The notes below the pieces were generated by a model. It ran no database searches. It saw only the letters and a program-made list of their open reading frames with translations, and was not told where the DNA came from. Made by a program: the position numbers and the translations under genes. Positions 7,642 to 64,000 of a DNA stretch of 64,000 nucleotides are shown in pieces (the stretch's first letter is position 1; each line of letters opens with the position of its first letter). Where the stretch lies: the NCBI GenBank assembly GCA_021463465.1, contig JAJTYH010000002.1, positions 1,347 through 65,346 on the forward strand, in the 5' to 3' direction. The stretch is from a bacterium. Its GTDB lineage: Bacteria > Patescibacteriota > Dojkabacteria > SC72.

Positions 7642-9335
7642 TTCTTGTTAATTCTAACATAAAATATGTTAAGCAAAAAAAGCAGAGCCAAGAAACCTAA
7701 AAAGAGTAATAGCTCCGAAAGTACTTGTGTTTTATCGCTTATTCCTGCAATTTGATTTTCAAAGTTCAGTACTTTCTTATCACCTAAAAGCGTAAATACC
7801 TCTAAAGAAGTTTGAGATGGAAAACTTCGTGTTTGCCCTGGGAGTATAAGTTCGTTGACAGTCCCCGCTTTAACAATGACAGGTACATTGCCGCGGTTTT
7901 CCATGGATCTGTCAAAAGACACTACATCAAAATTAGCATCTACTGTCGTAGCTACCGGTGTAATAACTAAATCATTTTTAGATAAAAAGGGTAGCTTAGG
8001 ATGGGTAGGGTTACTGCTTCTGATCAAAAGCTTGAGATAGTTAGGTGAATTCGGTTCAACCGCACCCTTGCTATGCATGTCTTCAAGTGAGGGATCTAGC
8101 AGAGTCCATTGTTTGGTGTCAAAGTTGTAATACTCAACCCATGAATGGTAGAAACCTTCTTGAGTATAAACTGAGGCTTTGGGAATATAACCGACCACCA
8201 TACGTGCAGGTATTGAGGCATTTCTTAAAAGTGCAATCAGTAAATCTACATAATCTTCAGGTACTGCAAAAACCTTCCGGCCTATCGCAACATCTGCGCC
8301 CCCACGGAGAGCGCTTTCAAAAGATGTATCTGCTGTGAGAGTACTCTTTGGGGCAAGAGAAAGCTTTTCTACCACATATGTATTTAAATCCTCAGGTTTA
8401 AACTCGGGCTTATTTTCTAGAAAACCCTTTACCCTGATAAGCTCAAATTCATTAGTTAAATTCCAGTAACCTTGCGTTAGTAAATCGCTTTCTTGATAAG
8501 TCTCGTCATTTGAAAGATCTTTCTTGATTATGTAGCCAGAAATATTCACAGCTTCCTGTCCCTTTGGATTAACAATAAACCCAAGTACAATGTTTTCATC
8601 ATTGTCTAAACGTTGAGTAATAGGTTGGGGAGAAATTGAGCTAATTACGAACTGCTGTTCACTGTCGGTAAATGGTAGTGTCAGTTCATGAATTACAGGT
8701 TCCTCGCTTTCATTTAGATAAATCTTGTTGAACTCGTACTTGTATGTAGGAGGAGTTCCAAATAAGATTGAGATCTCTTGACCAGTAATTCGAGTGAATT
8801 CGTAAGAATTGTACGAGTAGTTAGTTCTTTTGGTCTGTGCTCCCTCGCTCCAGGATACCGCAGGATCATCTGAAGGGTAGATTAATGTGACTTTTGTGAC
8901 ATCCAACCCTGGTATTTTGCCGATTACTTTTGCAAACCCTCCGCTCTTATCAAAGCCTGAAAGCGATTCAAAGGTGATGTCGAATTCAAAGTTATCTCTT
9001 GGAGGAATGACCTTAGTTCCGAAATTGATTATGAGTTCAGTACCATTACGTTGGAGATGACTTGTCAACTTTGCAGAAGTCGGTTGATTTTTGAGTTTGA
9101 GATTCTGAATACCTTGATAAGGAAGCAGTATCGTGTAGTAGTTAAGTACCGCTGGTTCTCTACTCTTATTCTTTAAATCTATTGTTAAAACCGTATTGAA
9201 ACGTCCTTTCTCGTAAGCATACTCAATTCTACCCGTGGAAGTGAGTTGTTCGGCGGCCAAAGCTCTATCAGAAAAAGCGAGAGGGAGATTAAATAGTAAT
9301 AGGGTCAGAAGAAAAAAGCCAAGTAAATTTTTCAT
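7620..9335 (-). CDS. secreted transglutaminase-like (TGase-core) domain protein lacking the catalytic Cys, with C-terminal TM anchor
   Basis: Signal peptide. The block VPEDYVDLLIALLRNASIPARMVVGY...FYHSWVEYYNFDTKQWTLLDPS matches the TGase-core consensus (GvCEDYA...GIPAR...HaWvEvy...D), but the catalytic Cys position is Pro and the 571-aa protein has no cysteine at all. C-terminal hydrophobic anchor plus basic tail. Confidence 0.6.
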   Translation of the reverse strand: MKNLLGFFLLTLLLFNLPLAFSDRALAAEQLTSTGRIEYAYEKGRFNTVLTIDLKNKSREPAVLNYYTILLPYQGIQNLKLKNQPTSAKLTSHLQRNGTELIINFGTKVIPPRDNFEFDITFESLSGFDKSGGFAKVIGKIPGLDVTKVTLIYPSDDPAVSWSEGAQTKRTNYSYNSYEFTRITGQEISILFGTPPTYKYEFNKIYLNESEEPVIHELTLPFTDSEQQFVISSISPQPITQRLDNDENIVLGFIVNPKGQEAVNISGYIIKKDLSNDETYQESDLLTQGYWNLTNEFELIRVKGFLENKPEFKPEDLNTYVVEKLSLAPKSTLTADTSFESALRGGADVAIGRKVFAVPEDYVDLLIALLRNASIPARMVVGYIPKASVYTQEGFYHSWVEYYNFDTKQWTLLDPSLEDMHSKGAVEPNSPNYLKLLIRSSNPTHPKLPFLSKNDLVITPVATTVDANFDVVSFDRSMENRGNVPVIVKAGTVNELILPGQTRSFPSQTSLEVFTLLGDKKVLNFENQIAGISDKTQVLSELLLFLGFLALLFLLNIFYVRINKKWFRIMR

Positions 9336-9591
9336 ACTTTCTTAGAATCTGTTTAATTAGAGGGGTTTTGCTGGTAATACCCTTCTGTGTAAGCGTTTTG
9401 TCCCAACTAATTTTCTTAGGTGTGTTCGCCAGCCTATATTCGGGGTTTCGAACAATCTCTTGCTTGGCGTTCTTACGAATAACATAATATGACATACCCC
9501 TCATGTCATCAAGTGAATCATGAATTTTGATCCCACTAAAAGAGTATTCGGCAATGATTAATGGTGTCGCTTTAGTATTTGCTAAGCACAT
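9289..9591 (-). CDS. hypothetical protein, translationally coupled to the upstream ORF
   Basis: The frame opens just after a TAA. An ATG (9591-9589) overlaps the upstream ORF's stop. The ORF table offers a TTG start at 9606. Confidence 0.35.
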   Translation of the reverse strand: MCLANTKATPLIIAEYSFSGIKIHDSLDDMRGMSYYVIRKNAKQEIVRNPEYRLANTPKKISWDKTLTQKGITSKTPLIKQILRKYEKFTWLFSSDPITI

Positions 9592-10019
9592 TTCAAAATT
9601 TGGCAAAACAATTGCCTTCTGACCCTTTTCAAGTTAGTGTAGTAAATATCACCCTCGAATTTCTGTCCGAAATCTTGCATCATAAGTACACCTCCACCGT
9701 ATACAACCTCAATCAATCGGGGGTAGCTTTCAACCATATTGGCACGAGTTTTGACGAATTCTATCCCTGCAAGGTTTGGCATAATTACATAGAAATTAAT
9801 CTCTAAATTCTTACTCTTATATATTCCATCTTGATCAAGGCATGTGTATTTGTCATAAAAAGTTTCCGGACATGTGACTTCGTTGTTTAGCAGTTGTTTA
9901 CGGATATCATCAAGGCCGATTCTTTGAATTTGCTGAAATTGTAAGCCTGAGGCCATTAACGTTTCATTTTCAAAATGAATAGGAAAACCAGAGGATTTTC
10001 TCAAATCGATCTTCGTCAT
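9582..10019 (-). CDS. hypothetical protein
   Basis: A 145-aa ORF with no recognisable motif. Its stop overlaps the ATG of the next small gene (ATGTGCTTAG junction). Confidence 0.4.
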   Translation of the reverse strand: MTKIDLRKSSGFPIHFENETLMASGLQFQQIQRIGLDDIRKQLLNNEVTCPETFYDKYTCLDQDGIYKSKNLEINFYVIMPNLAGIEFVKTRANMVESYPRLIEVVYGGGVLMMQDFGQKFEGDIYYTNLKRVRRQLFCQILKCA

Positions 10020-11117: not shown

Positions 11118-14100
11118 ATGTTTACCCACTTACATGTTCATACAGAGTACTCACTACTTGATGGCGTTAATCGCATACCTAACCTGGTAGCTAAAGTTAA
11201 GGAGTTGGGTATGAAAGGCTGTGCCATAACGGATCATGGCAATCTGTATGGCGCTTTTAAATTTTATTCTGAGATGAAAGATAATGGTCTTAAACCTATT
11301 ATCGGTTGTGAATTGTACATTGCCCCTCGCTCAATGCATGAGAAAGAAATGGGTATTGATAACAAGTATTTCCATTTGACTGTGCTTGCTCAGAATTTAG
11401 TTGGGTACAAAAACCTTCTTAAGCTTGTTTCCCTGGGACATACCGAAGGATTTTATTTCAAACCCAGGGTCGATTGGGAAGCACTGAAGCAGCATTCGGA
11501 GGGACTCATTGTACTTTCGGGGTGTCTTTCAGGAGTGCTTAGCAAGCGTATTGTTAACGCTCAGATTGACCAAGCTAAAGCTGAGGCCGCTAAATACAAA
11601 GAGGTTTTCAAAGACCGTTTCTTTATTGAGATTCAGAAGCTAAAGATTGAGGAGCAAAATCCTGTAAACGAAAAACTAATGGAAATTGCTAAAGAATTCA
11701 ACATACAGACTGTTGCTACATACGATGTTCATTTTTTGGAAAAAGGTGACGAAACCGTGCAAGAAGTATTGTGGGCAATTGCTGATGGTAAGAGTTTAGA
11801 TGACCCAACTCGTAGAGTTGTGAATACAAACCAATGTTATTTTAAAACTGACGAGGAGATATCAGAAGATTTTAAGGGATACGAGGGGGCAGTTGCTAAC
11901 ACACAGAAAGTTTTTGATATGGTAGAAGAGTTTGATATCACTTTTGGGCGCGTTGAGCTGAGCTTTGGCGACCTTCCAAAAGGAATGTCGACCAAGGAGT
12001 TTGTAAGGCAGTTGGTGTATGAGGGAGCAGCAAGGAAATATCCAAAGGTTACGAATGAAGTCAAGCAGCGTATTGACTATGAATTGGATATAATTAGTGA
12101 CAAAGGCTACGACACATATTTTTTGGTGGTTGCAGATTTCATCAAGTTTTGCACGGATAATGACATTATGGTTAGTGCGAGAGGCTCCGCAGTGGGGTCA
12201 GTAGTGGCGTATTGCTTGGATATAGCAAGTATCGATCCTATTAAATGGGGACTATACTTTGAGAGGTTCTTAAACCCTGGGAGACCCAGTCCACCTGATA
12301 TTGATTTGGACTTGTCTGATGTTAGGCGGTTTGAAGTTATACAGTATGCTCAGCGCAAATACGGCAAGGATTGTGTTAAACAGATTATTACCTTCTCAAA
12401 ATTGCAGACACGATTAGCCATCAGGGATGTGGCAAGGGTTCTTGGAATTGACCTACTTACCGCCGACAAGCTTTCCAAGATGGTAAAGGTGGAATTTGGT
12501 AAGACTAAATCCTTTGATTACATGATGGATAATAATTCTGAGTTTGCAGAATTGATTAACAGTACTGAGAAAACACAAGAGTTAGGGAAGATAGTTCGTA
12601 AAATTGCAGGAATGGCCCGAGGGGTGTCGATGCATGCTAGCGGTATAGTCATAACCCCAACTGCAGTTGATAATTATGTGCCTGTACAGCCAGATTCAAA
12701 GACTGACGAGGTGGGAATGACTCAGTATGAAATGACTGACCTTGAAACCATTGGGATTTTAAAACTAGACTTTTTAGGACTTAGAAACCTAAGCATTATA
12801 GACAATGCTCTAAAAAAAATTGAAAGAAGCGAAGGGAAAAGAATCGACTTAGCCAAAGTTGATACCGAAGATGAACGGGTCTATAAATCATTAAAAGAAG
12901 GTAATACCACTGGTCTGTTCCAACTTGAAGGTGAGGGTATGACAAGAGCGCTTATTCAGATTGAACCTCGTACAGCCGAGGATATATGTTACCTGCTTGC
13001 GGCATATCGTCCAGGACCTATTCAATTTATTCCAGAATATGTAGCTGTTCAGAGAGGTCAAAAAAAACCTAGATACATCCTTCCTGAATTGGAACCAATT
13101 CTAGGTGTTACCAACGGCGTTATTTCCTATCAGGAACAAGTCATGAGAATTGCTGTTGATATTGCAGGGTATTCTCTAAGTGAAGCAGATAACATGCGTA
13201 AGGCGATGGGTAAGAAGAAAATGGACATCATGTTGGAAGAAGTCGATAAGTTTGTTGAAGGAGGGAAACGTAAGGGGTTTCCAGTGGATAAGCTAAAAGA
13301 ATTAGGAGACTTGCTTTTGAAGTTCGCTAACTACGGTTTTAATAAGTCTCATTCAGCAATGTACGCAATGGTAGCCTACTACACCGCCTATCTCAAAGTT
13401 CACTATCCTTTAGAATATATGGCAGCATTGCTTGAGGCTGATTTAGGTAGATTTGATGATATGATTAAAGATACACTGGAGTGTGAACGAATGGGTATTA
13501 AGATTTTACCGCCTAACGTCAATAAATCAGGCTTTTATTTCTCAGTCGAGCAGAGTGACCAACAAAGTATTCGTTTTGGACTTGGTTCGATTAAAAATGT
13601 CGGCCAGGATGTGGTGAAAAACATTGTAGAAAAGAGAAACGATGGAGGAAACTTTCTTTCGTTAGATGATTTTGTATTTCGTTTGATTGATCGTAAATTG
13701 CAACTTAGAACGGTTGAGTACCTAATAATGGCAGGGGGTATGGATGAGTTTGGTGATAGGCAAGCCATGATAGATGTACTCCCCAGCATTATTGAAAAAG
13801 CTAAGAAGTACAATCAGATAGCTAACTTAGGACAAATTGATCTTTTTAATGCTTCTCAAAGTGGAGATGTAAAAGTTAGTTTCCCTCAGACACCTTTATC
13901 GGCTTCCACAACCACAGCAATTCATCAGTTACTTCGTTGGGAGAAAGAATTACTTGGCCTATACTTTAGCAGCCACCCACTGGATAATCTGAAGGAGTTT
14001 TTTGTAGGTAAGAATGTCATGAGTATAAGAGAGGTTCGTGGTGGAAAACCTAACAGCTTAGTTATTTTAGGCTGTTTAATTTCCAATGTTCGCAGAATTA

Positions 14101-14519
14101 CGACAAAAAACAATGAACGGATGGCTGTCCTTACAGTTGAAGATAAGACAGGAAGCATTGATGTCGTTGTATTCCCTCGTGCTTACGAAGAAGTGAAAGA
14201 TATGTTTGAACCTAATAAACCTGTGTTAATTGCTGGTAAACTTAATTTCCGGGACGATACACCCTCAATCATTTTTGAAAAAGCCAAGTATATAGATGAA
14301 GGAAAGTTCAGCACTGATTTTAAGGGTGTCATTTTTAAAATCACAAATAAACATAAAAAAGCCGATATCGCGAAACTTAAGAAGTACATAGTTGATAATC
14401 CAGGTGATATGCCTGTTAAGGTCGTTATGCATGAGAACGGCAGTCCCAAAAAAATCGATTTGAGAAAAGGCATTGCCTTAACTGACGAAGGTAAGCAACT
14501 TCTTCAGATTTTCTCGTGA
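11118..14519 (+). CDS. dnaE: DNA polymerase III alpha subunit
   Basis: A 1133-aa ORF with the PHP domain start (MFTHLHVHTEYSLLDG), polymerase core and OB-fold regions conserved throughout. Confidence 0.95.
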   Translation: MFTHLHVHTEYSLLDGVNRIPNLVAKVKELGMKGCAITDHGNLYGAFKFYSEMKDNGLKPIIGCELYIAPRSMHEKEMGIDNKYFHLTVLAQNLVGYKNLLKLVSLGHTEGFYFKPRVDWEALKQHSEGLIVLSGCLSGVLSKRIVNAQIDQAKAEAAKYKEVFKDRFFIEIQKLKIEEQNPVNEKLMEIAKEFNIQTVATYDVHFLEKGDETVQEVLWAIADGKSLDDPTRRVVNTNQCYFKTDEEISEDFKGYEGAVANTQKVFDMVEEFDITFGRVELSFGDLPKGMSTKEFVRQLVYEGAARKYPKVTNEVKQRIDYELDIISDKGYDTYFLVVADFIKFCTDNDIMVSARGSAVGSVVAYCLDIASIDPIKWGLYFERFLNPGRPSPPDIDLDLSDVRRFEVIQYAQRKYGKDCVKQIITFSKLQTRLAIRDVARVLGIDLLTADKLSKMVKVEFGKTKSFDYMMDNNSEFAELINSTEKTQELGKIVRKIAGMARGVSMHASGIVITPTAVDNYVPVQPDSKTDEVGMTQYEMTDLETIGILKLDFLGLRNLSIIDNALKKIERSEGKRIDLAKVDTEDERVYKSLKEGNTTGLFQLEGEGMTRALIQIEPRTAEDICYLLAAYRPGPIQFIPEYVAVQRGQKKPRYILPELEPILGVTNGVISYQEQVMRIAVDIAGYSLSEADNMRKAMGKKKMDIMLEEVDKFVEGGKRKGFPVDKLKELGDLLLKFANYGFNKSHSAMYAMVAYYTAYLKVHYPLEYMAALLEADLGRFDDMIKDTLECERMGIKILPPNVNKSGFYFSVEQSDQQSIRFGLGSIKNVGQDVVKNIVEKRNDGGNFLSLDDFVFRLIDRKLQLRTVEYLIMAGGMDEFGDRQAMIDVLPSIIEKAKKYNQIANLGQIDLFNASQSGDVKVSFPQTPLSASTTTAIHQLLRWEKELLGLYFSSHPLDNLKEFFVGKNVMSIREVRGGKPNSLVILGCLISNVRRITTKNNERMAVLTVEDKTGSIDVVVFPRAYEEVKDMFEPNKPVLIAGKLNFRDDTPSIIFEKAKYIDEGKFSTDFKGVIFKITNKHKKADIAKLKKYIVDNPGDMPVKVVMHENGSPKKIDLRKGIALTDEGKQLLQIFS

Positions 14520-16012
14520 TAGAATATCTTGTGAATACACAACTCCAAGACAAGATCACCTTACTCCCTAGGTCGAGTGGCATTTATAAGTTTTTGAACC
14601 GTGAAGGTAAGGTTTTATATATTGGAAAAGCACATAACTTAAAGTCACGAGTTTCAAGCTATTTTTCAGATACCCATCTAGATCGTCCGCGAATTGTTGG
14701 GATGATTCCTCTTATAGCAGATATCAACTATGTTGAAACAGATAATGATATTGAGGCACTAGTATTGGAGTCTGCGTTAATAAAACGGGAGCAGCCTAAA
14801 TATAATACTGATGCAAAAGATGATAAATCGTACTCATACCTTTATATTAATATTAAACACGACTATCCGACGGTAAGGATTGTAAGACAGGTTTCCAAAG
14901 CTGAACTTAAAGAAGGGAAACTTTTTGGCCCGTACCCAAGCGGTGGTTCGGTTCGTAGAGTTTTTCATTATCTCCGAAGGATATTTCCTTTCTGTACAAG
15001 TAAAGATCCAACTAAACCTTGTTTTGATATGCATATCGGACTCTGTCCAGGTCCAATTCCCTCTCAGGAGTATCGTAAGAATATTAATGGAATAATTGAG
15101 TTCCTTAAGGGCAAAAGCAACCATCTTATTAAAAATGTGGTCGATGAAATGGAGTTAGCTTCAGATAATCAAGAATACGAAAGTGCGGCCATATTACGTG
15201 ACAAGGTTAATGACTTGCGTTACCTGACCTCAAAAATAAGAGTAGATAATATGGAAAATGAGCTTGAATATGTTCAAATCCGGAGACAGCGAGCTAAGAA
15301 AAGACTGCAAAGCTTAGCCAAAGAATTGAACATAAATCAGATTCATCGAGTTGAATGCTACGATATTTCCAATCTTCAAGGCAAGTTTGCTTATGGATCA
15401 ATGGCTGTTGCTATTGATGGTATTAATGATAACAGTCAGTATCGAATATTTAAGATTAGGGGTGTCGATATACCTAATGACCTAGCAATGTTATCAGAAG
15501 TCTTGAGGAGGAGGATTAAATATTTAAGAAACGAACTAGATGTAAGCCTAGGGCAAATTCCGACTATTATTCTGATTGATGGGGGTGGAAATCAACTACA
15601 AGCCGTAAATGACCTTGTTCCGAAAGATATCGTACTACTTGGCATTACTAAAGGTAGGAAATATCGGAGAAAAGGAGGTAGATTGCTTGATGAGTTCTGG
15701 AAGATAGAGAATAATGAGATAGTACAGTTGAAATTAAGAAATACACAGTCCTTATCACTACTGAGAGATGAAGCCCATCGATTTGCACTACTTCATCACC
15801 GCAAAGCCAAAGCTAAAGGTAACATCAAATCCTATCTGGATGAAATCCCACTTGTCGGACCAAAAACCAAAAAGCTTTTGAAGCAAGCATTTAGTTCTAA
15901 AGAACTGCTGCGTAGTACAAGCAGGGAAAAGCTTGTGGGGATTGTTAAAAACTCTAAAATTGCTGATGCAATTATTGAATACTTTAAGGCTGAACTGTCT
16001 CAACCTGGGTAA
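14516..16012 (+). CDS. uvrC: excinuclease ABC subunit C (compact form)
   Basis: GIY-YIG N-terminus (SGIYKFLNREGKVLYIGKAHNLKSRVSSYF), a UVR motif (AAILRDKVNDLRY), an RNase H-like endonuclease region and C-terminal HhH. The GTG start overlaps the dnaE TGA (GTGA). Confidence 0.85.
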   Translation: MIEYLVNTQLQDKITLLPRSSGIYKFLNREGKVLYIGKAHNLKSRVSSYFSDTHLDRPRIVGMIPLIADINYVETDNDIEALVLESALIKREQPKYNTDAKDDKSYSYLYINIKHDYPTVRIVRQVSKAELKEGKLFGPYPSGGSVRRVFHYLRRIFPFCTSKDPTKPCFDMHIGLCPGPIPSQEYRKNINGIIEFLKGKSNHLIKNVVDEMELASDNQEYESAAILRDKVNDLRYLTSKIRVDNMENELEYVQIRRQRAKKRLQSLAKELNINQIHRVECYDISNLQGKFAYGSMAVAIDGINDNSQYRIFKIRGVDIPNDLAMLSEVLRRRIKYLRNELDVSLGQIPTIILIDGGGNQLQAVNDLVPKDIVLLGITKGRKYRRKGGRLLDEFWKIENNEIVQLKLRNTQSLSLLRDEAHRFALLHHRKAKAKGNIKSYLDEIPLVGPKTKKLLKQAFSSKELLRSTSREKLVGIVKNSKIADAIIEYFKAELSQPG

Positions 16013-17063: not shown

Positions 17064-17124
17064 ATTATTAATTTATACCAATGTTTTGTAATCTTCAAAT
17101 GCATAGTATAATCATTAGCTCTAA

Positions 17125-17195
17125 TGCGGGATCGTCTAATGGTAGGACAACGGCCTTTGAAGCCGTGTATCTTAGTTCGAATCTAAGTCCCGCAA
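17125..17195 (+). tRNA. tRNA-Gln (anticodon UUG)
   Basis: Hand-folded: acceptor TGCGGGA/TCCCGCA, anticodon stem ACGGC/GCCGT with loop CTTTGAA, T-arm CTTAG-TTCGAAT-CTAAG, short D-arm. No encoded CCA. Confidence 0.8.
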
Positions 17196-17207
17196 TTTCC
17201 TATTTGT

Positions 17208-18068
17208 GTGTTATATTTTAATGTTATGCGTATACCTTTGCCCAAGCATTACTACAAAATCGTTGATCTCAAATTTGAGAGCAAAAGAATCAGAACATAT
17301 AGGTTTGGAATCGGACCCAAAAAGATACTCTCACTACCTGGCTTTCCTCACTCCGGGCTGACTTACCTCTATTTTCTTCTTAAATATGACCTTAAAAAGG
17401 TTCAGTTCATTACTTTTGACTTACCAGGCTGGGTAGGCAATTCAGAGAATATTTTTGAAGAATTAGGATATAACGAGGAACAGTTGATCATTCTAGTAGA
17501 ATTGATTATTAACAAGTATGAACTTAATCATTTTAGTGTAATTGGATACTCGTTTGGTTCAAGTTTAGCAGCAAGACTTGTTGGCTTAAATAAATATCGA
17601 ATCGAAAAACTCGCTTTAATATCTCCTGTACTTGATGGTGATCAAATTACATATCGCAGATGGCTGTTAAATACGCTCCGACAATTTAAGATATACGACT
17701 ATCTTAAACTGCATATCTATAGGAAAATGAACATTTATAAAGCCCAGCTTATTAAACTTGGTTTAGACCCTTCACTGCTGGATGAATATCAGAAAATGTT
17801 CAAGAATTCAGACAGTAAAGTACTGCTTGAAAGCATAGATAAACTATTCACAAGTAACTACTCATCCTACCTAGACAATTTTGATGCCGACAAGATCTTA
17901 ATTGCCTCATCTAAGGATGAGTCGCCATATATTAAGGAGCAATCTACTCTGTTGCGTCGTAAATTAAAAGGGGAGAAAACCCTTTATTTGGAAGGTAATC
18001 ATGAAGATTTTATTCTTCATCCAGAAACAGAAATGGTGGTGAAAGTCATTGACTTCCTAATCAAATAA
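17208..18068 (+). CDS. alpha/beta-hydrolase fold protein
   Basis: GYSFG nucleophile elbow (GxSxG), with an Asp and a His downstream (NHEDFILHP) consistent with a catalytic triad. The true start may be a few codons in. Confidence 0.6.
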   Translation: MLYFNVMRIPLPKHYYKIVDLKFESKRIRTYRFGIGPKKILSLPGFPHSGLTYLYFLLKYDLKKVQFITFDLPGWVGNSENIFEELGYNEEQLIILVELIINKYELNHFSVIGYSFGSSLAARLVGLNKYRIEKLALISPVLDGDQITYRRWLLNTLRQFKIYDYLKLHIYRKMNIYKAQLIKLGLDPSLLDEYQKMFKNSDSKVLLESIDKLFTSNYSSYLDNFDADKILIASSKDESPYIKEQSTLLRRKLKGEKTLYLEGNHEDFILHPETEMVVKVIDFLIK

Positions 18069-18069
18069 T

Positions 18070-20052
18070 TCAGTTGAGTCGTAGTTTAAGCTCTTTGATT
18101 TCATCCCGTAATTTAGCGGCTTTCTCAAATTGTAAGTTATGTGCATAGAGATGCATTTGGTCCTCAAGGTTTTGAATTACTCTTTTAAGCTCTTTCCTGT
18201 TCGGTTTGTCAGTCTTGACCCACTGAGAGTAGCTGATTTGTGGCTGCTCATCATCTTGCACTAAACGCTCTCTAATAGCCTTAATTATACTTTTTGGAGT
18301 TATATTATACTTCTTATTATACTCTGACTGATATTTCCTGCGTCGATTAGTTTCGTCAATTGCGTATTTCATACTATCCGTTACTTTGTCTGCATACATA
18401 ATAACCCTACCTTCAACGTGTCGTGCAGCGCGTCCAATTGTTTGAACCAAGCTGGTTTTGGACCTAAGAAACCCTTCTTTGTCAGCATCAAGTATCAAAA
18501 CCAACGAAACCTCAGGTAGATCAATACCCTCTCTCAAGAGGTTAATACCTACCAATACATCGTATTCTCCCAATCTAAGGTCTCTTAATATATCAACACG
18601 CTCTACAGTATCTACATCAGAATGAAGATACTGAACCTTCAGTCCTGTGTCTTTAAGGTAGGTGGCAAGGTCCTCAGCCATCCGCTTGGTCAGTGTTGTA
18701 ATGAGAACGCGATGACCTTTATCGACAGCTCCTTGGGCTTCCCTAATCACATCGTCAATCTGGTTTTGTGTAGGTCGCACTGAAACCTCAGGATCTAATA
18801 AGCCAGTAGGTCTCACCAAAAGCTCAGCTACTTCGCCGTGGCTATCTTTAATCTCCCATTCACCCGGGGTAGCTGAAATATAAACAGTTGAGCCCATTTT
18901 GTCGTAGAATTCGTTAAAAGTAAGTGGACGGTTATCTCTAGCGGTTGGCAACCTAAACCCATATTCAATCAAATTATCCTTTCTAGCTTTATCACCATTA
19001 GACATTCCGCCTACCTGTGGGATTGTAATGTGTGATTCATCAACCAAAAGTAAATAATCATCGGAGAAATAATCAAGGAGCGTAAATGGAGGTTGCCCTT
19101 CTTTGCGACCGTCAAAATAGATTGAGTAGTTCTCCATACTCTTGCAAAAACCTACCTCTTTAATCATCTCGACGTCGTACATTGTTTTCTGGTACAAACG
19201 ATTCGCCTCAAGCTCTTTACCGAGATTCTTTAAGAAATCAGTTCGCTTCTTAAGATCTTCCTCAATTCTATGAATCGCACCTGCAAGTACTTCGGGTTCA
19301 TAAACCATTGAGGTAGCTGGGAAGACCTCAACTTCTTCTTTGACTTGAAGTTTGTGTCCAGTGATACTGTCAATATAAGAAAGCCTTTCAATTTCATCTC
19401 CGAAAAACTCAATCCGCAAAGGAAAATCATCGTACGTCATGAAAATATCTACCACATCACCCTTAATTCTAAATTTGCCTGAAACAAAGTCCTCACCTTG
19501 TCGAGTATATCTCATTAAAGTTAGCTTCCTGGAAAGGGTGGCAATACTTAACTTTTCTCCTACCTTAAGAGTTAGGGCTTGATTAGCGTAGTTTTTAGGA
19601 CTTCCGATATTATATATACATGAGACTGATGCAACAATTATAGTATCACTTCTGGTTACTGCGGCATTCATAGCTGAAAACCTTAAACGCTCAATCTGTT
19701 GGTTAGTTTCAGATTCTTTTTCTATATAAAGATCACGGTTAGGAAGGTAAGCTTCAGGCTGGTAGTAGTCATAATATGAAACAAAATATCGTACAGCATT
19801 ATCTGGAAAGAACTCTTTAAATTCTTCAAACAGTTGTGCCGCCAGAGTTTTGTTGTGTGAAAGCACTAATGCTGGTCTATTGGTTCTGTTAATCAAGTTT
19901 GCCATAGCAAACGTCTTACCTGAACCTGTTACTCCTAGAAGCACCTGCTTGTTTTTACCCCTATTAATGTTATCAACTAGCTTATCAACAACCTTAGACT
20001 GCTCAACTGAGGCATCAAAGGTTGATTTTAATTGAAAAGGTTTATGAATCAC
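18070..20052 (-). CDS. uvrB: excinuclease ABC subunit B
   Basis: A 660-aa ORF with Walker A (GVTGSGKT), helicase motifs, and the C-terminal UVR domain (AAKLRDEIKELK). Confidence 0.95.
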   Translation of the reverse strand: MIHKPFQLKSTFDASVEQSKVVDKLVDNINRGKNKQVLLGVTGSGKTFAMANLINRTNRPALVLSHNKTLAAQLFEEFKEFFPDNAVRYFVSYYDYYQPEAYLPNRDLYIEKESETNQQIERLRFSAMNAAVTRSDTIIVASVSCIYNIGSPKNYANQALTLKVGEKLSIATLSRKLTLMRYTRQGEDFVSGKFRIKGDVVDIFMTYDDFPLRIEFFGDEIERLSYIDSITGHKLQVKEEVEVFPATSMVYEPEVLAGAIHRIEEDLKKRTDFLKNLGKELEANRLYQKTMYDVEMIKEVGFCKSMENYSIYFDGRKEGQPPFTLLDYFSDDYLLLVDESHITIPQVGGMSNGDKARKDNLIEYGFRLPTARDNRPLTFNEFYDKMGSTVYISATPGEWEIKDSHGEVAELLVRPTGLLDPEVSVRPTQNQIDDVIREAQGAVDKGHRVLITTLTKRMAEDLATYLKDTGLKVQYLHSDVDTVERVDILRDLRLGEYDVLVGINLLREGIDLPEVSLVLILDADKEGFLRSKTSLVQTIGRAARHVEGRVIMYADKVTDSMKYAIDETNRRRKYQSEYNKKYNITPKSIIKAIRERLVQDDEQPQISYSQWVKTDKPNRKELKRVIQNLEDQMHLYAHNLQFEKAAKLRDEIKELKLRLN

Positions 20053-20103
20053 TTTGACTCGTATATAATGCTAACTGGTTATTATACAATTAATTAAGAA
20101 ACT

Positions 20104-21875
20104 ATGCCTGAACTTAAAAGGTTATCGGATGAGTTGATTAGTCAGATCGCGGCTGGAGAAGTGGTTGAACGACCTGCTTCTGTACTTAAAGAATTAATAG
20201 ATAATTCAATAGACGCTGGCGCTACTCAGATAAAGGTAAAGCTCAAAGATGGTGGTCTGAAATTGGTTGAGGTTTCTGACAACGGTAGCGGAATGCCCAA
20301 AGAAAATCTTTTGAAAGCTTTTGAACCGCATACGACAAGTAAGATTTCTAATCTGAAGGATCTTAGTGACATAAGGACGATGGGATTTAGAGGAGAAGCC
20401 TTAGCAACAATACTTTCGGTAGCTCAGGTAGAAGTCACATCAGGGCATGACAAGAGTGCGTATTCAATCGTGTTTTCTCAGGAACGCACACCGAAAAAGG
20501 CGGCTCGGAATATAGGTACGACAGTTTCTGTGGCTAACCTTTTCTTCAATACCCCAGCTAGACTAAAGTTTATGAAGACTGCAGAGACGGAATATCGTAA
20601 GATTTTGGAGGTATTTAATAGCTATGCCTTAGCTTATCCTAAAATTCACTTTATTCTTGAAAAGGATCAGAAAGAAGTCTTTAATCTTCCCTCCAGAAAT
20701 GAGGTGAATTTGGACAAAAACAGGGTATTTGAGGTTCTGAAAAAAGCTTTTGTGGAGCGAATGATTCCGATTAAGTCTGAAGGGGCAGGTATTAAAATTA
20801 TCGGACTGATAGGACATCCTTCGGATAGTGCTGTAAAGCAGAATGAACAGTATGTTTTTGTGAATAACCGTCCAATTTGGGATAACGGTATATCAAGAGC
20901 TATACACCAAGGTCTTTCCCGCTTTATTCCACATATGTTTAAGGTGCCGTTTATTATAAAGCTTTTTGTTAAAGCCGATTTAGTTGATGTAAATGTCCAT
21001 CCACGTAAGGAGGAAGTGAAATTTATCAATCCTTTCAGGGTTTATATAGCTATTGAGCAGGCGGTCAAACAAACCGTAGAGCAAGCGACCCAAATGGCAT
21101 ACACGCCACCATCTTCATTTAAGCAAAGTCAACCTACCAAAGGTTACTTATTTGACAACACTGAGATAACTTATACGAAACAAAACGACGTGAAGGAGGT
21201 GAGATTTGGTAAAAAAACTTCTGATTTTAATATTTCCAGAAGCATTGACTTTACCAAGCATATATTGAGAGCTGAAGATACTCAAACCTTTAAGTCTGAA
21301 CCTTTTAAAGCGGTTTACCAACTGTTTAATAAGTATATTGTCATAGAATTTGAAAGTGGGATTTGGCTGATTGATCAGCATGCGGCAGCAGAGAGAATTA
21401 CCTTTGAAAGGTTAGAGAAACAGTATCAAAGTAAGAAGAAAGAGATTCAAAAGCTTTTGGTTCCAACCACAATTGAGATTAGCGATGCTGAAAGTTCCTA
21501 TTTAAAGGAAAATCAGCAATTTTATGAGGATTTAGGCTTTGAACTTAAAATCAATGAGAATGTTTTAGAGATATATTCCATTCCTTCTTTCTTGATGGTA
21601 GGTGGAGTAGAAGAAGTTTTTAAATCGTTATTTGACATCAAAGACGGAGTTACCGATCTCAAGGATAATTACGAAAAAAAATGGGAGATATTTTTGCTGC
21701 TATTGCCTGCCACAGTAGTGTTAGAGCTGGTCAGGGGCTTTCTACACCTGAACTTATCAACATTTATCAAGAACTAGGTCAATGCCGAAATCCTTTTTCT
21801 TGTCCTCACGGCCGTCCTGCAGTGTGGAAGCTGCCATTGACTGAAATCGACAGTCATTTTTTACGGACATACTGA
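20104..21875 (+). pseudogene. mutL: DNA mismatch repair protein MutL, interrupted by a single-base indel in an A8 homopolymer (21674-21681)
   Basis: The N-terminal 20104-21777 piece carries the GHKL ATPase (ELIDNSIDAGA...SDNGSGM). The conserved MutL C-terminal endonuclease/dimerisation motifs (IAACHSSVRAGQ...CPHGRP) sit in a different frame (21681-21875). The switch coincides with the A8 run; adding one A (or removing two) restores ...DNYEKKMGDIFAAIACHSS. Confidence 0.7.
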
Positions 21876-22741
21876 TGAGATATCTAAAGCTACCTATCAA
21901 AGGTAATCTAAACATAACAGAGGGTTGGATTTATACTCAGGAAGAGCGCAAAATTCATCACAACTACTTTCATAAAGGGGTCGATTTCCAGACTTCGTAT
22001 CACCAGCCTATCTTTGCTAGTGCAGATGGGTTTGCAGTAGCCTCATACCATAGATTTCCACTTAACGATCCCTTAGGTATGCCTTTACTTTATATGAACA
22101 AACCACTCTCTAACGGTTTAGGATTATTTGTACAGATTTATCACCCACCAAAAGTTTACGGAGCGAATGAATGGAGAATTACGCAGTACGGGCATTTATC
22201 AGAGTTGAAAAACCATAAGTTACTTCGAAACACAGGCCCAATTGATTATGACTTGGAAGGCAAAATCATTAGAAGAAACAAGCGAAAACGAAAATACAAA
22301 CTCAGCGAAATAGAGCTTAACAAATTAATCTCAAAATTTAGAGTATTAAAAAAGAAGTTTTCTTGGATTAGTAACATTTATGGTTATAACTTTTTTGGCG
22401 ATATTTATACTAAGGAGTCATATATCTTAACCCCAGATGAGATATTGGTATTAGTAAAAGAGAATCATCCGAGTGTTTGTAAGGTAAAACAAGGTGAGCA
22501 GATTGGATATAGTGGTCAGTCGGCTGTATTTTATGGCAATCTTCCTTATAACGAAGATAATATTAAAAGTATTAATGAATTTGAAAATACATGGGACGAA
22601 ATTCATCTGCACTTCGAAGAAGCTACACGTAACTGGAAAAGTGGTGCAAAGATTGACCAGAAAGATGCATTTGGGATATATAAGAGCAAGAAATGGTACC
22701 AAGGAAAAGGTTTGATGCATTCAATGTTTGCTGACCTATAG
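21875..22741 (+). CDS. M23-family (LytM-like) metallopeptidase
   Basis: HKGVDF...PIFASADG (HxxxD motif) and a downstream HLHFE (HxH) motif, with a roughly 100-aa K-rich insertion. The ATG overlaps the mutL TGA. Confidence 0.55.
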   Translation: MRYLKLPIKGNLNITEGWIYTQEERKIHHNYFHKGVDFQTSYHQPIFASADGFAVASYHRFPLNDPLGMPLLYMNKPLSNGLGLFVQIYHPPKVYGANEWRITQYGHLSELKNHKLLRNTGPIDYDLEGKIIRRNKRKRKYKLSEIELNKLISKFRVLKKKFSWISNIYGYNFFGDIYTKESYILTPDEILVLVKENHPSVCKVKQGEQIGYSGQSAVFYGNLPYNEDNIKSINEFENTWDEIHLHFEEATRNWKSGAKIDQKDAFGIYKSKKWYQGKGLMHSMFADL

Positions 22742-22747
22742 ATACGA

Positions 22748-23431
22748 TTGATATACTCAGTCGTGATCAAGGTTAGAAATCTTCGGAAAATCTACAAGCC
22801 GAGTAAGAAAGTTCAAGTACATGCTGTGAATGATGTCTCTTTTGAGATTGATCATGGCAGTACTGTTACAATTGTTGGGCCTTCTGGTTCTGGTAAATCT
22901 ACAATCCTTAATATTTTAGGAGGACTAGACTCACAATACATGGGCGAGGTGATGGTGAATGATAAAGAAGTTCGTAAATACAATCCAAATTATTATCGAA
23001 GACATGTTCTTGGTACTATATTTCAACAGTTTTACCTAATTCCTTCATTAACTGTTGCTGAAAACATTCTTTTACCCATCAAATTTGGGAAACAGTTAAA
23101 CAAGGCTCAAACAATGGAGAGGTTAATGTATCTTTTAGAACGCGTAGATCTGAAGAATCGAGCCAATCACTTACCCAGCGAACTCTCTGGAGGCCAAGCA
23201 CAAAGAGTGGCAATAGCAAGAGCATTAATGGGAAAGCCTCAGATTTTGCTTGCTGATGAACCAACAGGGAATTTGGATTCTAAAACAGGGAGAGAGATTT
23301 CCAAATTACTTTTTGACTTGAATAAGGAAGAACAAACTACCCTTGTAATAGTAACACATGACAAGAAACTCTTTAAACAAGCGTCGGAGAGCATTTATTT
23401 AAGAGATGGTAAAACTGTAAAGTCACTTTAA
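22748..23431 (+). CDS. ABC transporter ATP-binding protein (MacB/LolD-like)
   Basis: Walker A GPSGSGKST, signature LSGGQAQRVAIARAL, Walker B ILLADEPTGNLD. TTG start. Confidence 0.85.
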   Translation: MIYSVVIKVRNLRKIYKPSKKVQVHAVNDVSFEIDHGSTVTIVGPSGSGKSTILNILGGLDSQYMGEVMVNDKEVRKYNPNYYRRHVLGTIFQQFYLIPSLTVAENILLPIKFGKQLNKAQTMERLMYLLERVDLKNRANHLPSELSGGQAQRVAIARALMGKPQILLADEPTGNLDSKTGREISKLLFDLNKEEQTTLVIVTHDKKLFKQASESIYLRDGKTVKSL

Positions 23432-24708
23432 TGTTTAAATACGCTTTACAAATCATATTCAGACGTAAACTCAGAACTTTTCTGACCAGTTTGGGAATTA
23501 CAATAGCCATCGTGCTTCTAGGTTTCATTATATTTGGAATGGGGGATTTACAGAAGCTTTTTGTGAACGAATTTAACTCACAGTTTCAGCCAAATCAGGT
23601 TATAGTATCCCGTTTTGGATTAAACTCGATTCTTCCATCAGCTGATGACTCAGAAAAAAATGAAGAAATAAAGAAGGCAATTTTCAATACTAAAGTAATT
23701 AACGAGATTAGGGCTCGTGATGACGTAAAAAGCCTGGAACCACAAGTTCTAGTATCTGGTATGCAGATGAGATTAAAAGGTAGCAAAAAGGTCTATGGTC
23801 AACCGTTCATTTCGGGCTGGGATGCAACCAGAGATAATCCGTACTTTGTAAGCGTAACTTCTGAGCAAGATAAGCCTGGCAAGGGTGAAGTTTTTGTTTC
23901 GACTTTCTTTTTAGATTTTTATAACAAATCTGTCGAAGAAGTTATAGGGAAGACAGTTTTTATTGAGTCTTCAAATGCGTCAATTTTTACAACTAGGTCA
24001 AAGAGTAATTTTAATAAAAGCTTTAAATACAAAATTACTGGTGTCTTCAATCCGGGACAGGATCGTAACGACGCAATGTTAAATACTAAAGAAGCCTTAA
24101 ATCTATTGGTAGATATTGGTGGCTATAAGAATAGTAGTGAGTATTTAAATGAAATAGGTTACGATCAGTTAATGATTACTGTAAATCAAGATGAAATAGA
24201 AAACTTTAAGACTGATTTTGAAAATAGGTACGGTTATAAACCGATTTCCTCTGATGAAATTCTAGGTTTTTTGGGTAATATTACTCAAGGTTTGACTGTT
24301 GCACTCGCGATGTTTGGGTTAGTTTCTGCTATTGTTGCTTCAATTGGAATTATCAATACTATGATTATGAGTATTTATGAACAGACAAAAGAGATTGGAA
24401 TTATCAAGGCCATTGGAGCATCAAACTTTCAGGTTTTAGTAATCTTCCTGATTCAATCAGCTTCAATCGGTTTAATTGGTGGTCTACTCGGACTAGGTAT
24501 TGTATACATTGGAATGAAAGTTGCAGATCCTTATATTGTTGCCGAGCTTGGCAAAGCTGGCTTTACTCTTACTCGATACTTCACTTTTGACCCTAAGATT
24601 GCATCAGTGATTATAGGATGTAGTATTTTTGTAGGTGTAGTTGCTGGCATATATCCTGCATCAAGAGCGGCAAGACTTGACCCTGTCAAAGCACTTAGGT
24701 ACGAGTAA
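23431..24708 (+). CDS. ABC transporter permease, FtsX/MacB-like
   Basis: N-terminal transmembrane helix, a large periplasmic domain, and the C-terminal FtsX 4-TM bundle. Its start overlaps the ATPase stop. Confidence 0.8.
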   Translation: MFKYALQIIFRRKLRTFLTSLGITIAIVLLGFIIFGMGDLQKLFVNEFNSQFQPNQVIVSRFGLNSILPSADDSEKNEEIKKAIFNTKVINEIRARDDVKSLEPQVLVSGMQMRLKGSKKVYGQPFISGWDATRDNPYFVSVTSEQDKPGKGEVFVSTFFLDFYNKSVEEVIGKTVFIESSNASIFTTRSKSNFNKSFKYKITGVFNPGQDRNDAMLNTKEALNLLVDIGGYKNSSEYLNEIGYDQLMITVNQDEIENFKTDFENRYGYKPISSDEILGFLGNITQGLTVALAMFGLVSAIVASIGIINTMIMSIYEQTKEIGIIKAIGASNFQVLVIFLIQSASIGLIGGLLGLGIVYIGMKVADPYIVAELGKAGFTLTRYFTFDPKIASVIIGCSIFVGVVAGIYPASRAARLDPVKALRYE

Positions 24709-24710
24709 AG

Positions 24711-25295
24711 TTACAAAGCTAGCCTCTTCTCAACTACATCCCAGTTAACTAACTGCCACCAATTTTCAACATAAGCACCTCTGTCGTTTTTGTAGTCTAG
24801 GTAATAGGCATGCTCCCAAACATCAATTGCCAGCAACACATTGTAAGTGTTGAGTCCTAGCAAATTGTGCTTCTCTAATTGGCCAATTAATAGATTTCCA
24901 TTATTATCAGAGTATAAAATCGCCCAACCAGAACCTTCAACAGTCTTTGCGGCTTCAGAAAACTCATTTTTAAAGGCATCATAAGAACCAAAGCTTGACT
25001 CTATTTTTTTCTTCAGAGAGTCTGAGGGTGCGTTACTTTCCTTTACAGCCCGCATATTCTCCCAAAATAACTCGTGCATTACATGGCCATTAACATTAAA
25101 GCTAAGATCTCTCATAATCGCCTTAACATTTACGAGGTCTCCTTTTCGACCTTTTTCAAGTAGTTCGAGCGCAGCATTAGCGCCATTTACATATGCCATA
25201 TGATGTTTATCGTAATGAAGTTGTACTATCTCTTTTGAAATAACAGGGGAAAGTGCGTCATATGCGTAAGGCAATGGCTTTAATTCGTATTTCAT
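24711..25295 (-). CDS. sod: Fe/Mn superoxide dismutase
   Basis: MKYELKPLPYAYDALSP...HHxxY and the C-terminal DVWEHAYYLDY metal-binding motif. The likely start is Met5 of the tabulated ORF. Confidence 0.9.
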   Translation of the reverse strand: MKYELKPLPYAYDALSPVISKEIVQLHYDKHHMAYVNGANAALELLEKGRKGDLVNVKAIMRDLSFNVNGHVMHELFWENMRAVKESNAPSDSLKKKIESSFGSYDAFKNEFSEAAKTVEGSGWAILYSDNNGNLLIGQLEKHNLLGLNTYNVLLAIDVWEHAYYLDYKNDRGAYVENWWQLVNWDVVEKRLAL

Positions 25296-27103: not shown

Positions 27104-27112
27104 ATCGTTATA

Positions 27113-27698: not shown

Positions 27699-28340
27699 AT
27701 GAACCCTTACGTAACCGAAAAGCAGGTGAAGGTCTTGACTATAATTAGGGATTTTTACCTAGAAAAAGGCTATGCACCATCGCTTTCAGAACTCCAACAG
27801 CTTTTAAAGATTAGCACTAAAAGGGGGGTTGTGAACCATCTAATTGCACTTGAAAAAAAGGGTTTTATTATACGAACGAGTGAAGCCAGGGGGATTCAGC
27901 TAGTAGAGGAAGGTGAGTATGAATATATGGTTGGAGTCCCTATATTAGGTTATGCAAACGCAGGTACTCCTCTTGCAATGGCTGAAGAAGCACGTTTGGG
28001 CGTTCTACATATAGATAAGGCTCTTCTTAAACACAAAAACGACCTTTTTGCCCTTATCATTAAAGGTGACTCTATGAATCAAAGAGTAATTAACGGCAAA
28101 AAACTTGAGGATGGTAGTTTTATTGTTGTATCAAAACAGAGCGAGATTCGATCCGGCGATGCAGTTGTAGCAATCTTGGACAATTCAGCTACAGTTAAAT
28201 CGATTAAATACGATGAAAATATGATTGTACTTTATCCTCAATCAGATAATGAAAGACATATGCCAATCTACTTAGATAAATATAGCAACTCACTAATCAA
28301 TGGCAAGGTTGTGATGGTATTGGATAATCCCAAGTATTAG
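27699..28340 (+). CDS. lexA: LexA repressor (S24 peptidase)
   Basis: N-terminal winged HTH (LTEKQVKVLTIIRDFYLEKGYAPSLSEL), an Ala-Gly cleavage region (ANAGTP), catalytic Ser in GDSM, and a downstream Lys. Confidence 0.85.
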   Translation: MNPYVTEKQVKVLTIIRDFYLEKGYAPSLSELQQLLKISTKRGVVNHLIALEKKGFIIRTSEARGIQLVEEGEYEYMVGVPILGYANAGTPLAMAEEARLGVLHIDKALLKHKNDLFALIIKGDSMNQRVINGKKLEDGSFIVVSKQSEIRSGDAVVAILDNSATVKSIKYDENMIVLYPQSDNERHMPIYLDKYSNSLINGKVVMVLDNPKY

Positions 28341-60550: not shown

Positions 60551-62317
60551 ATGAGAAATATCTTTAAAATTATAAAGCTAAGCAAACCACTACACGGTTT
60601 GATGCTCTTAATTATTGTAATTGTAATACTTGGAACCCTTTTTGAAATTGTCACACCACTTCTTTCTGGAAAAATCCTAGACGAGGTAATTAGGCAATCA
60701 ACAAACCAAACGAAAGAATTTAGTAAACTCTTCACTCTTTTGGCACTTTCACTTTCATCAATTATCATCTACTTAGCGCTAAGGTCACTAGGGCAAAGAT
60801 TAGGCGACCATCTATCTGGGAAAATAAGAAAATTCCTCACAGAAATATTCTATGATAAAGCATTGAAGATCTCACAATCGTATTATGATTCAGAAATTTC
60901 AGGAAAATTAGTCAACCAGTTAAATAGAGGAATTGCTTCAATACAAGAATTTGCGAATGCCTCAACCAACTTTATCATCCCAACCTTTCTACAATCTTTT
61001 ATTGTTATAGGAATCCTAATGTACTTCAACCTATACTTAGGAATCTTAATGATTTCAATCCTTCCTATCTATCTATGGATTACATCTATCTCAACAAAAA
61101 GATGGGGGCTCAAGGAGGAAGGTAAAAATAAGATTGAAGATTTAACAAGAGGAAGGATTCAGGAGGTGATATCCAATATTAAACTTGTTAAAGGATTTAC
61201 GTCTGAGAAGAGAGAATTTAAGCTGCTTTCAACAAACTTAGACCAAATAAACGCAATATATAAACAGCAAAGTACAGAATTTCACCTTTTTGATTTTTTA
61301 AGAGAGTTAATTCTTAATGTAATCCTTTTTGGAACCGCTTAGATTATCTACAACAATACTTTAAATGGTCTTATTACCGTTGGGTCAGTCATTGTTTTAA
61401 TACAGCTTGTTGACAGAGCAAGATCATCCCTTTTTGGAATGTCATACATCTTAGGACAAATACAAGCAATCGATTCGGGCTCCAAAGAGTTTTTTGAAGT
61501 TTTAAATATTGAGACTACAGAAGATTACAACAAGAAACAAAAGTTTGAAAAAATTAAAAACCCAAAAATTGAGTTCCAAGATGTTACTTTCCAATATGAC
61601 AGTAATAAAACTGTACTAGAAAATGTTTCTTTTGATTTAAGTAAAAATGAAATGGTAGCACTTGTTGGCCCAAGTGGAGCAGGGAAGTCTACAATAGTTA
61701 ATCTGCTTCTCAAGTTCTATAACCCTACCTCAGGAGCCATTACATTTAATGGGAAAAAGTATTCAAAACTCTCACATAACCAAGTTAGGAATAATATAGC
61801 ATTAGTATTTCAAGAGAATGAACTCTTCTCACTATCTATCAAAGAGAATGTTGCATATGGAAGCGATATTGATGATAAGAAAGTCATATCTTCGCTTAAA
61901 AAAGCTAATGCCTGGGAATTTGTAAGTAACTTAGAAAAAGGAATAGATACCTAAGTAGGGGAAAGAGGAATTAAGCTTTCTGGCGGTCAGCGGCAGAGGA
62001 TTCAAATTGCTAGAGCCATATACAAAGATGCACCTATACTAGTACTTGATGAAGCAACATCAAGTTTGGATGCTAAATCCGAAAGTGATGTTTCAGAAGC
62101 TATTGAAAATCTTGTTAAAAATAGGCTAGTTATCGTCATTGCACACAGATTCTCAACAATTCAAAATGCGACAAAGATTATAGTTTTAAATAATAAAAAG
62201 GTAGAAGCAATTGGTGCACCACATATTTTAGCAAAAAAACCAGGTATTTACTCTGAACTTCTTAAGTATCAGATAAAGGGGAATAAGAAACTGCTCAAAA
62301 AGTTTGAGTTGTATTAA
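60551..62317 (+). pseudogene. MsbA/Sav1866-type ABC exporter (TMD-NBD fusion) interrupted by two in-frame stop codons (TAG 61340-61342, TAA 61952-61954)
   Basis: The ORF-table pieces 60551-61342, 61439-61954 and 62066-62317 all lie in one frame. Hand translation across the stops is continuous and conserved: ...LFGTA*IIYNNTLNGLITVG... (TM helix 6) and ...NLEKGIDT*VGERGIKLSGGQRQRIQIARA...VLDEATSSLD... (Walker A GPSGAGKST; signature and Walker B lie beyond the second stop). Confidence 0.75.
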
Positions 62318-62956: not shown

Positions 62957-64000
62957 ATGAAAAAACTCTTGGTAACTATGCTAACTCCTATCCTGATTAG
63001 CTTAATATACCTAGTGCAAACTCCCCAAAACATATCCGCTTCATTAAATACTTGGCTACAAACAGATTGGAGCGGAGGAAATGGACAAACTTCTTGGAGT
63101 GACGACACTAAGTACAACGTATCAAGCAATGTCGTGGCAAATGATTCAATCAGCCTAACAAATAGTAACAATTGGAACGACAGTAACTGGTTATATAGGA
63201 AAAAAATTACCTTTAATAATTCAGCGCAAGCAGAAAACCTTGATAATTTCATCGCAATGGTCAATTTGACCTCAGATAATTTTGATTTCACTAAGACAAA
63301 AGCAAATGGTGAAGATATTCGTTTTTTTGATGAAAACGGTTCAACTGCTTTAGAATATGATATTGAGGAATTTAATCAAAGCGCACAGGAGGCAATTATC
63401 TGGGTAAAAGTACCCAGAATTGATGCATCATCATCAACTGATAACATCATTATGTATTACGGAAATACATCTGCTAATGACTCACAAAACCCAACTTCAG
63501 TGTGGTCATCATACGAGCTCGTTTATCAAATGAATCAAGATCCATCAGGCTCAGCTCCACAAATTCTGGATAGCACAAACAATAATAGAGATGGAACTAC
63601 TTTTGGCTCTATGGCAAGTAATCAGTTGTTAACTGGTAAAATCGGTTCGGGTATTAACTTTGATGGGGTCAATGACTATATTAATGTAGGAAATATGAAC
63701 CCACATACATATGGAAGCGCAACCTTTTCGGCTTGGTATAAGTCATCTATCAATACATCAACTGATGATCAATATATCCTCCTTTATCTAGGTGGAGATA
63801 GACTTGTATTTGGTTTAACTGATGATTCAGGGAAAGTAGATCGAGCTAGGTTCTGTCTTAAGGAAAGCTGTTTCTTTGGTACTACCGATGTTGTAGACCA
63901 ACAATGGCACCATATTGTTGTTGTTAGAGATTATAATTCTACCCACAAACTATTTGTTGATGGCAATCTACAATCAAGTACCGCAGCACCGTTTCTTGGA
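62957..64000 (+). CDS. DUF2341 plus LamG/concanavalin-like domain surface protein; the C-terminal end runs off the window
   Basis: Missing from the ORF table because it has no stop. ATG at 62957 with a signal/anchor (LLVTMLTPILISLIYLV). NWLYRKKITFNN...GEDIRFFDENGSTALEYDIEEFN...IIWVKVPRI matches DUF2341. Then GINFDGVNDYINVG...W...LFVDGN is LamG-like. In frame through position 64000. Confidence 0.6.
   Translation, partial: MKKLLVTMLTPILISLIYLVQTPQNISASLNTWLQTDWSGGNGQTSWSDDTKYNVSSNVVANDSISLTNSNNWNDSNWLYRKKITFNNSAQAENLDNFIAMVNLTSDNFDFTKTKANGEDIRFFDENGSTALEYDIEEFNQSAQEAIIWVKVPRIDASSSTDNIIMYYGNTSANDSQNPTSVWSSYELVYQMNQDPSGSAPQILDSTNNNRDGTTFGSMASNQLLTGKIGSGINFDGVNDYINVGNMNPHTYGSATFSAWYKSSINTSTDDQYILLYLGGDRLVFGLTDDSGKVDRARFCLKESCFFGTTDVVDQQWHHIVVVRDYNSTHKLFVDGNLQSSTAAPFLG

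Follow-up and report, generated by a model that had tools for sequence, protein, structure and literature searches.

Does the mutL gene of this uncultured member of the Dojkabacteria carry a genuine frameshift, or does the break belong to the one record in which it is found? In the window, by which we mean the whole 64-kb stretch of DNA analysed here, the coding region of mutL is interrupted within a run of eight A residues. The first-pass annotation, made from the sequence alone, presented this as a possible mutator allele and named a sequencing error as the alternative. Comparison with independent assemblies of the same species favours the alternative: each of the 6 samples in which the site is covered has nine A residues, and eight are found in the window's record only. 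The structural reading of the locus given earlier is upheld here, but its headline, a mutator allele, becomes the less likely interpretation.

Structure of the interrupted mutL locus

Direct reading of the sequence gives eight A residues at 21674-21681, and a single-base break of frame in this run divides mutL into ORFs of 557 and 64 amino acids, just as had been described (Table 1). The 557-aa ORF corresponds to authentic MutL from residue 1 to residue 526, the last of these, K526, being encoded by the codon at 21679-21681; it then continues for 31 out-of-frame residues (W and 30 more) before reaching a stop. Residues 1-526 cover the GHKL ATPase, the transducer domain and the linker, along with the greater part of the C-terminal domain, in agreement with the earlier description of the upstream frame. 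This part retains DQHAAAERITFE at residues 424-435, together with a stretch resembling a clamp motif, QKLLVP, at 449-454. The first-pass annotation had placed the remaining C-terminal motifs in another frame, opened by an ATG within the A run, and this too was confirmed. The start codon of the 64-aa ORF uses the final A of the run, and the ORF carries the ACHSS zinc-ligand motif (C536/H537 at 21708-21713), CPHGRP at 21801-21818 and then the C-terminal FLRTY. This region has matches to MutL endonuclease domains of solved structure, namely 3ncv, 3gab/3kdk and 5b42.

Table 1. Coordinates of the mutL features, the T7 run and the sites at which the window differs from all other assemblies
Feature	Position	Strand	Remarks
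mutL as it stands in the window	20104..21777	+	557 aa; assigned from the ORF list, Pfam, TIGR00585 (461 bits) and alignment
A8 homopolymer, site of the frame break	21674..21681	+	nine A residues in all independent assemblies of the species
64-aa ORF, -1 frame relative to upstream mutL	21681..21875	+	MutL residues 527-590
Second private one-base deletion	9626..9629	-	+ strand T4, gene strand A4; 5 elsewhere
Private T>A, TTG to TAG, L264*	61341	+	in 467-aa ABC transporter, 60551..61954
Four private missense sites	34058, 42128, 49013, 49939		L106S, P357A, S284T, K205T
T7 run	63322..63328	+	in DUF2341/Laminin_G_3 gene; ORF begins at 62957 and runs off the window

Both repairs that had been proposed restore the frame. 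Addition of one A to the run yields a continuous 590-aa MutL, reading ...DNYEKKMGDIFAAIACHSS..., and removal of two A residues does so with one Lys fewer. The 590-aa protein obtained with nine A residues is letter-for-letter the protein found in public assemblies (P0121, Logan). The run itself is unremarkable for the composition of the window, which has a GC content of 36.9% and contains six A8 runs, one T8 run and no homopolymer that is longer.

A further suggestion, that the C-terminal fragment might still be made separately from the internal ATG, found no support. The nearest sequence resembling a Shine-Dalgarno element, AAGGA, ends 16 nt upstream of this ATG, and the 64-aa fragment alone could not form the metal site, because the DQHAX2EX4E helix is absent from it.

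Identity of MutL and consequences of the break

The two-frame arrangement is not a chance pattern of ORFs, since the repaired protein matches four MutL Pfam domains as well as the NCBIfam equivalog TIGR00585 (460.9 bits, cut-off 180). The Pfam matches are HATPase_c_3 (PF13589, 4.5e-15), HATPase_c (PF02518, 7.5e-11), DNA_mis_repair (PF01119, 3.9e-25) and MutL_C (PF08676). The last of these extends over residues 405-544, or profile positions 2-140 of 142; with the window's own 557-aa ORF, the MutL_C match stops at profile position 109. The N-terminal domain aligns with solved MutL N-terminal domains (E ~1e-60), and the C-terminal domain matches structures 3ncv and 3gab/3kdk. By family, domain and motif criteria the gene is a predicted MutH-independent bacterial MutL endonuclease. 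Database searches place it closest to MutL proteins from Candidatus Dojkabacteria (candidate division WS6), with the nearest non-identical sequence at 56% identity. Among the GTDB representative genomes no close relative was found, the best match having 50% identity.

In an alignment of 19 sequences, DQHAAAERITFE (D424-E435), C536/H537, CPHGRP (C567-P572), F586 and R588 are all invariant. The DQHAX2EX4E motif, an ACR-type Cys and CPHGRP build a two-zinc active site, and in T. thermophilus the arginine of CPHGRP is needed both for nicking and for mismatch repair (MMR) in vivo (PMC10366529). The frame break separates the upstream DQHAX2EX4E motif from the ACH and CPHGRP motifs. Because C536/H537 and CPHGRP are cut off, the 557-aa product, if present in cells, should be endonuclease-dead.

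Run length in independent assemblies of the species

An intact mutL with nine A residues occurs in 6/6 independent samples, drawn from three accession series, that cover the site (SRR17318674/79, SRR30163052/55 and ERR10655368/72; contigs L006-L009, L011, L012, L015 and L037-L040). Apart from the run, two of these contigs do not differ from the window (100% identity across 7.7 and 11.8 kb), and two are from strains that show 15 and 48 substitutions per ~8 kb (0.2-0.6% diverged). Since nine A residues are universal outside the window's record, including in the more diverged strains, A9 is the ancestral and maintained state. The A8 of the window, seen in its own record only, is thus a derived one-base deletion. 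The protein collections point the same way: the 557-aa product appears on no contig other than that of the window's NCBI record (332,333 nt), and the 64-aa product has no record anywhere in the public protein collection that was searched.

Several other sources were searched for this locus. No copy of it was found among JGI metagenome contigs by using the flanks with any run length from 6 to 12 nt (N{6,12}). Contigs of SRR26868053, the only run with the same allele as the window at the T7 run described below, were sought for coverage of mutL through the adjacent M23 peptidase gene, and none was found. A full-text literature search on the run and assembly accessions returned no paper, and a search for Dojkabacteria together with Nanopore returned none that could be linked to the window's record. 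In the other NCBI MAG of the species, GCA_020853275.1 (L010/L042), an assembly gap spans the mutL A-run, with contig 8 ending at window position 21611 and contig 12 beginning at 21825; a Logan contig from SRR30163053 (L041) begins at 21755. The gap around the run could reflect coincidence, low coverage or heterogeneity among reads at the run.

Relatives of mutL and the possibility of programmed recoding

The comparison of run length among strains and relatives that the first-pass annotation had called for was extended from conspecific samples to 58 relatives with a recognisable motif. In every one of these 58, mutL is a single ORF. The A-run at the homologous site ranges from 2 to 8 nt, mostly 3-4, and in none is it 9 nt or longer. 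These short runs and the absence of breaks rule out a conserved contingency tract. Nor do independent samples of the species show both an ON and an OFF length, as a contingency locus would: all six have A9, and A8 is confined to the window. A Lys-rich E-K-x-K patch is common to the window and its closest Dojkabacteria relatives, and with the codon usage of an AT-rich genome such a patch gives rise to a long A-run as a by-product.

Productive shifts of frame on A-runs are known from dnaX of E. coli (A_AAA_AAG) and T. thermophilus (A9), and from the poly(A) frameshift rescue of insect endosymbionts. The mutL run resembles the dnaX type in that the zero frame forms a slippery heptamer in the right phase, GA A_AAA_AAA TGG, on which a -1 shift would give ...EKKMGD... 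and the same full-length product as A9; 10 nt 5' of this heptamer there is an AAGGA sequence. If the gene were meant to be out of frame in the DNA, -1 ribosomal frameshifting or slippage of RNA polymerase would supply the complete protein. We regard this as highly improbable. Unlike the dnaX type, mutL is in frame in all 6 other conspecific samples, and the two-frame layout is conserved in none of the 58 relatives. Moreover, there is no stimulatory RNA structure downstream, RNA in the 90 nt past the run being less stable than shuffled controls (z = +1.33 and +0.58). Programmed frameshifting is essentially refuted by the in-frame A9 of the conspecific assemblies.

A length polymorphism in a predicted surface protein gene

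Slippage at a homopolymer is a real source of variation within this species, at a different site of the window. The T7 run at 63322 lies within a gene whose product is matched by DUF2341 (Pfam, 3.8e-18, residues 117-186) and Laminin_G_3. With seven T residues, as in the window and in Logan run SRR26868053, the gene is one long intact ORF with a signal peptide. With eight, as in SRR17318674/75/76/79, GCA_020853275.1 and ERR10655368, it is split into ORFs of 117/124 and 665 aa. The DUF2341 domain spans the run; it reads GEDIRFFDENGSTALEYDIEE...IWVKVP with T7 and is broken by T8. Unlike the mutL run, this run occurs at both lengths in independent samples, and it is a genuine length polymorphism. 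Since the T7 of the window is independently corroborated by SRR26868053, slippage variation does exist in the species, and the window's record is correct at this site.

The predicted secreted DUF2341/Laminin_G_3 protein looks like a phase-variable surface protein, the OFF state being the commoner among the assemblies. Whichever way the status of mutL is settled, the T7/T8 run offers a better starting point than mutL for work on phase variation in CPR bacteria.

Other changes private to the window's record

All 64 kb of the window were compared with independent contigs, which were found via anchor proteins. Private changes were counted only at sites covered by at least two other samples. On this count the window has seven, two one-base deletions and five substitutions, and apart from the T7/T8 run no further indels were found in the 64 kb. 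Three of the private differences break genes: mutL, a GPI-family gene and an ABC transporter.

The second private deletion splits the 243-aa GPI-family (PF06560) gene at 9289..10019 into ORFs of 145 aa (9582..10019) and 105 aa (9289..9606). The intact 243-aa protein occurs without a single difference on 12 contigs, 9/9 samples covering the site have the longer run, and the 145-aa product is found on the window's own contig only. The nonsense change L264* cuts the ABC transporter, a fusion of membrane and ATPase domains, to 263 aa; position 61341 is T in all 5 other samples, and the 263-aa product is again restricted to the window's own contig. The missense changes affect a TPM-domain protein (L106S), a T2SSE-type ATPase (P357A) and two unannotated proteins (S284T and K205T), and three of these four are transversions. 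At three of the four sites the other assemblies have a short homopolymer, which is interrupted by the base of the window. Every product private to the window, including the four missense variants, is found on the window's own contig only, with the alternative alleles represented on several independent contigs.

All five private substitutions alter a protein, and they comprise 1 transition and 4 transversions. Among the other assemblies we counted 104 polymorphic substitution sites (67 transitions and 37 transversions) and one indel. Indels are thus over-represented in the private set (2/7 versus 1/105; Fisher p=0.0098, on small numbers). Over ~56 kb no private changes were seen in the closest sister genotype (SRR173186xx), compared with 7 for the window. 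A long, indel-rich private branch of this kind fits a flawed consensus and a hypermutator lineage alike, and the spectrum of substitutions should discriminate better between the two than does the length of the branch. Loss of mismatch repair leads mainly to transitions and to indels in homopolymers (PMC8875331). If 90-95% of substitutions are assumed to be transitions, the probability of at most one transition in five is 3e-5 to 5e-4. With only 1 transition among the 5, it appears that a defect of mismatch repair did not produce the private substitutions.

The homopolymers of the record were also compared with those of the independent contigs. No differences were seen at 7 eight-mers, 33 seven-mers and 87 six-mers. 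This agreement at all other runs of at least 6 nt excludes a general homopolymer problem in the record. The error rate does not rise with homopolymer length, the two private deletions being in a 9-mer and a 5-mer.

Origin of the A8 run

We favour the reading that the consensus undercalls A9 as A8 and that the flaw is confined to this one record, and consider it probably, but by no means certainly, correct. The organism's mutL would then be an ordinary, intact gene for a 590-aa, MutH-independent MutL endonuclease, in which the codons GAA AAA AAA ATG, for Glu-Lys-Lys-Met, make up a run of nine A residues. In a single deposited assembly this run would have been called one base short, shifting the frame past K526 and splitting off the ACH and CPHGRP motifs on paper only. 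This reading is preferred because A8 is confined to the record, A9 is universal elsewhere, the record contains other private lesions and the repaired protein has an exact match in public assemblies. Since unsupported changes occur in the record at ~1e-4 per base, another one-base deletion among them, the A8 run is most simply taken as one more of these, located where errors are likeliest. We infer that the cause lies in consensus or sequencing error rather than in a mutation in cells.

It is well known that the consensus of long-read MAGs can contain erroneous homopolymer indels by which gene calls are fragmented (PMC9262707). The mutL break is like the errors described there in that a one-base change in the length of an A/T run splits a gene into two ORFs, in one assembly that carries more private lesions and is contradicted by near-identical independent ones. 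It is unlike the Nanopore errors of that study (PMC9262707) in that the window's record has no clear dependence on homopolymer length and its substitutions are rich in transversions. The correctness of the record at its other 6-8-nt runs, together with a deletion in a 5-mer, makes a poor fit to length-dependent Nanopore errors, and for this reason our confidence in an undercall is no higher. It is further held down by the T7 of the window, an intact and corroborated allele, and by the position of A9 as the longest run of the region, which makes a real A9>A8 event plausible.

Such an event would mean that slippage from A9 to A8 gave rise to a real loss-of-function allele, the majority variant of the assembled population, with mismatch repair dead or nearly so. 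We hold this to be possible and yet doubtful. The truncation would amount to a null allele, given that in T. thermophilus mismatch repair in vivo requires the arginine of CPHGRP (PMC10366529). Revertible by +1 slippage at the same run, the allele would be a mutator that might remain leaky through transcriptional slippage or -1 ribosomal slippage on A_AAA_AAA. Once corrected to A9, the run exceeds every other homopolymer of the 64 kb in length and hence would be its most mutable site, the genuine T7/T8 polymorphism attests to slippage in the species, and the record shows no error at any of its other 6-8-nt runs. The seven private changes, with their excess of indels, are also what a mutator would give. 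Their transversions are not: 4 of the 5 private substitutions are of this type, which has a probability of P<=5e-4 under an MMR-deficient spectrum. The A8 allele was seen in 0/6 independent samples, and its truncated products are on no other contig. In addition, three dead genes in ~60 would be an implausible load for the abundant population of a reduced-genome organism (332-kb contig), and one of the three, the GPI-family sugar-phosphate isomerase, is identical in 9 other samples. The intact A9 of all six samples, the other private lesions of the record and the substitution spectrum all argue against the mutator allele that the first-pass annotation had put forward.

In human MSI tumours, MSH3 and MSH6 are known to acquire frameshifts at mononucleotide runs in their coding sequence. 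If the A8 run is real, mutL would resemble such MMR mutators in possessing a slippage-prone coding repeat at which a -1 change loses the catalytic motifs and a +1 change reverts. It would differ from them in that the OFF length was seen once, the run is neither conserved nor long in relatives, and there is no transition-dominated footprint. Reversible mutators have been described in which a prophage lies between mutS and mutL (S. pyogenes) or a mobile element in mutS (V. splendidus) (PMC8875331). The strongest form of the mutator reading, which we think quite unlikely, is that A8 is real and the mutL run serves as a self-reverting mutator switch in this uncultured Dojkabacteria (CPR) population. 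Slippage would then be raised at homopolymers genome-wide, affecting the T7/T8 run as well as reversion to A9.

The two outcomes have different implications. If the A8 run is an artefact, as we favour, the organism would be falsely annotated in this record as being without functional MutL, GPI-family isomerase and ABC transporter, and it would be a false conclusion to read "MMR loss in a CPR bacterium" from the record. If it is true, it would represent a natural mutator allele at a reversible hot spot in an uncultured bacterium with a reduced genome, a known kind of phenomenon, although to our knowledge no such natural allele has been documented in this bacterial group.

Gene neighbourhood and other features of the window

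The mutL gene belongs to a cluster of DNA-maintenance genes at 11118-28340. This includes dnaE (11118..14519), uvrC (14516..16012), uvrB (18070..20052, on the - strand) and mutL (from 20104), followed by superoxide dismutase, a NUDIX hydrolase and lexA (about 27699..28340). No mutS was found within the 64-kb window.

A purine-rich stretch at 60130-60420 contains two tiny, very basic ORFs, each with a strong Shine-Dalgarno sequence upstream. The first begins with ATG at 60144 and reads MKTKKREQEKKTGKGGGRQKQTREKKRRKGWINRK; the second begins with TTG near 60284, reads LAQTKKEKKKKEKGKQKPTAKTNGKKGH and includes the A8 run at 60308. A search of the stretch against Rfam gave no match. A hairpin, GTGGGCTTA...TAAGCCCAC, lies 3' of the two ORFs, and the whole stretch is identical in independent contigs.
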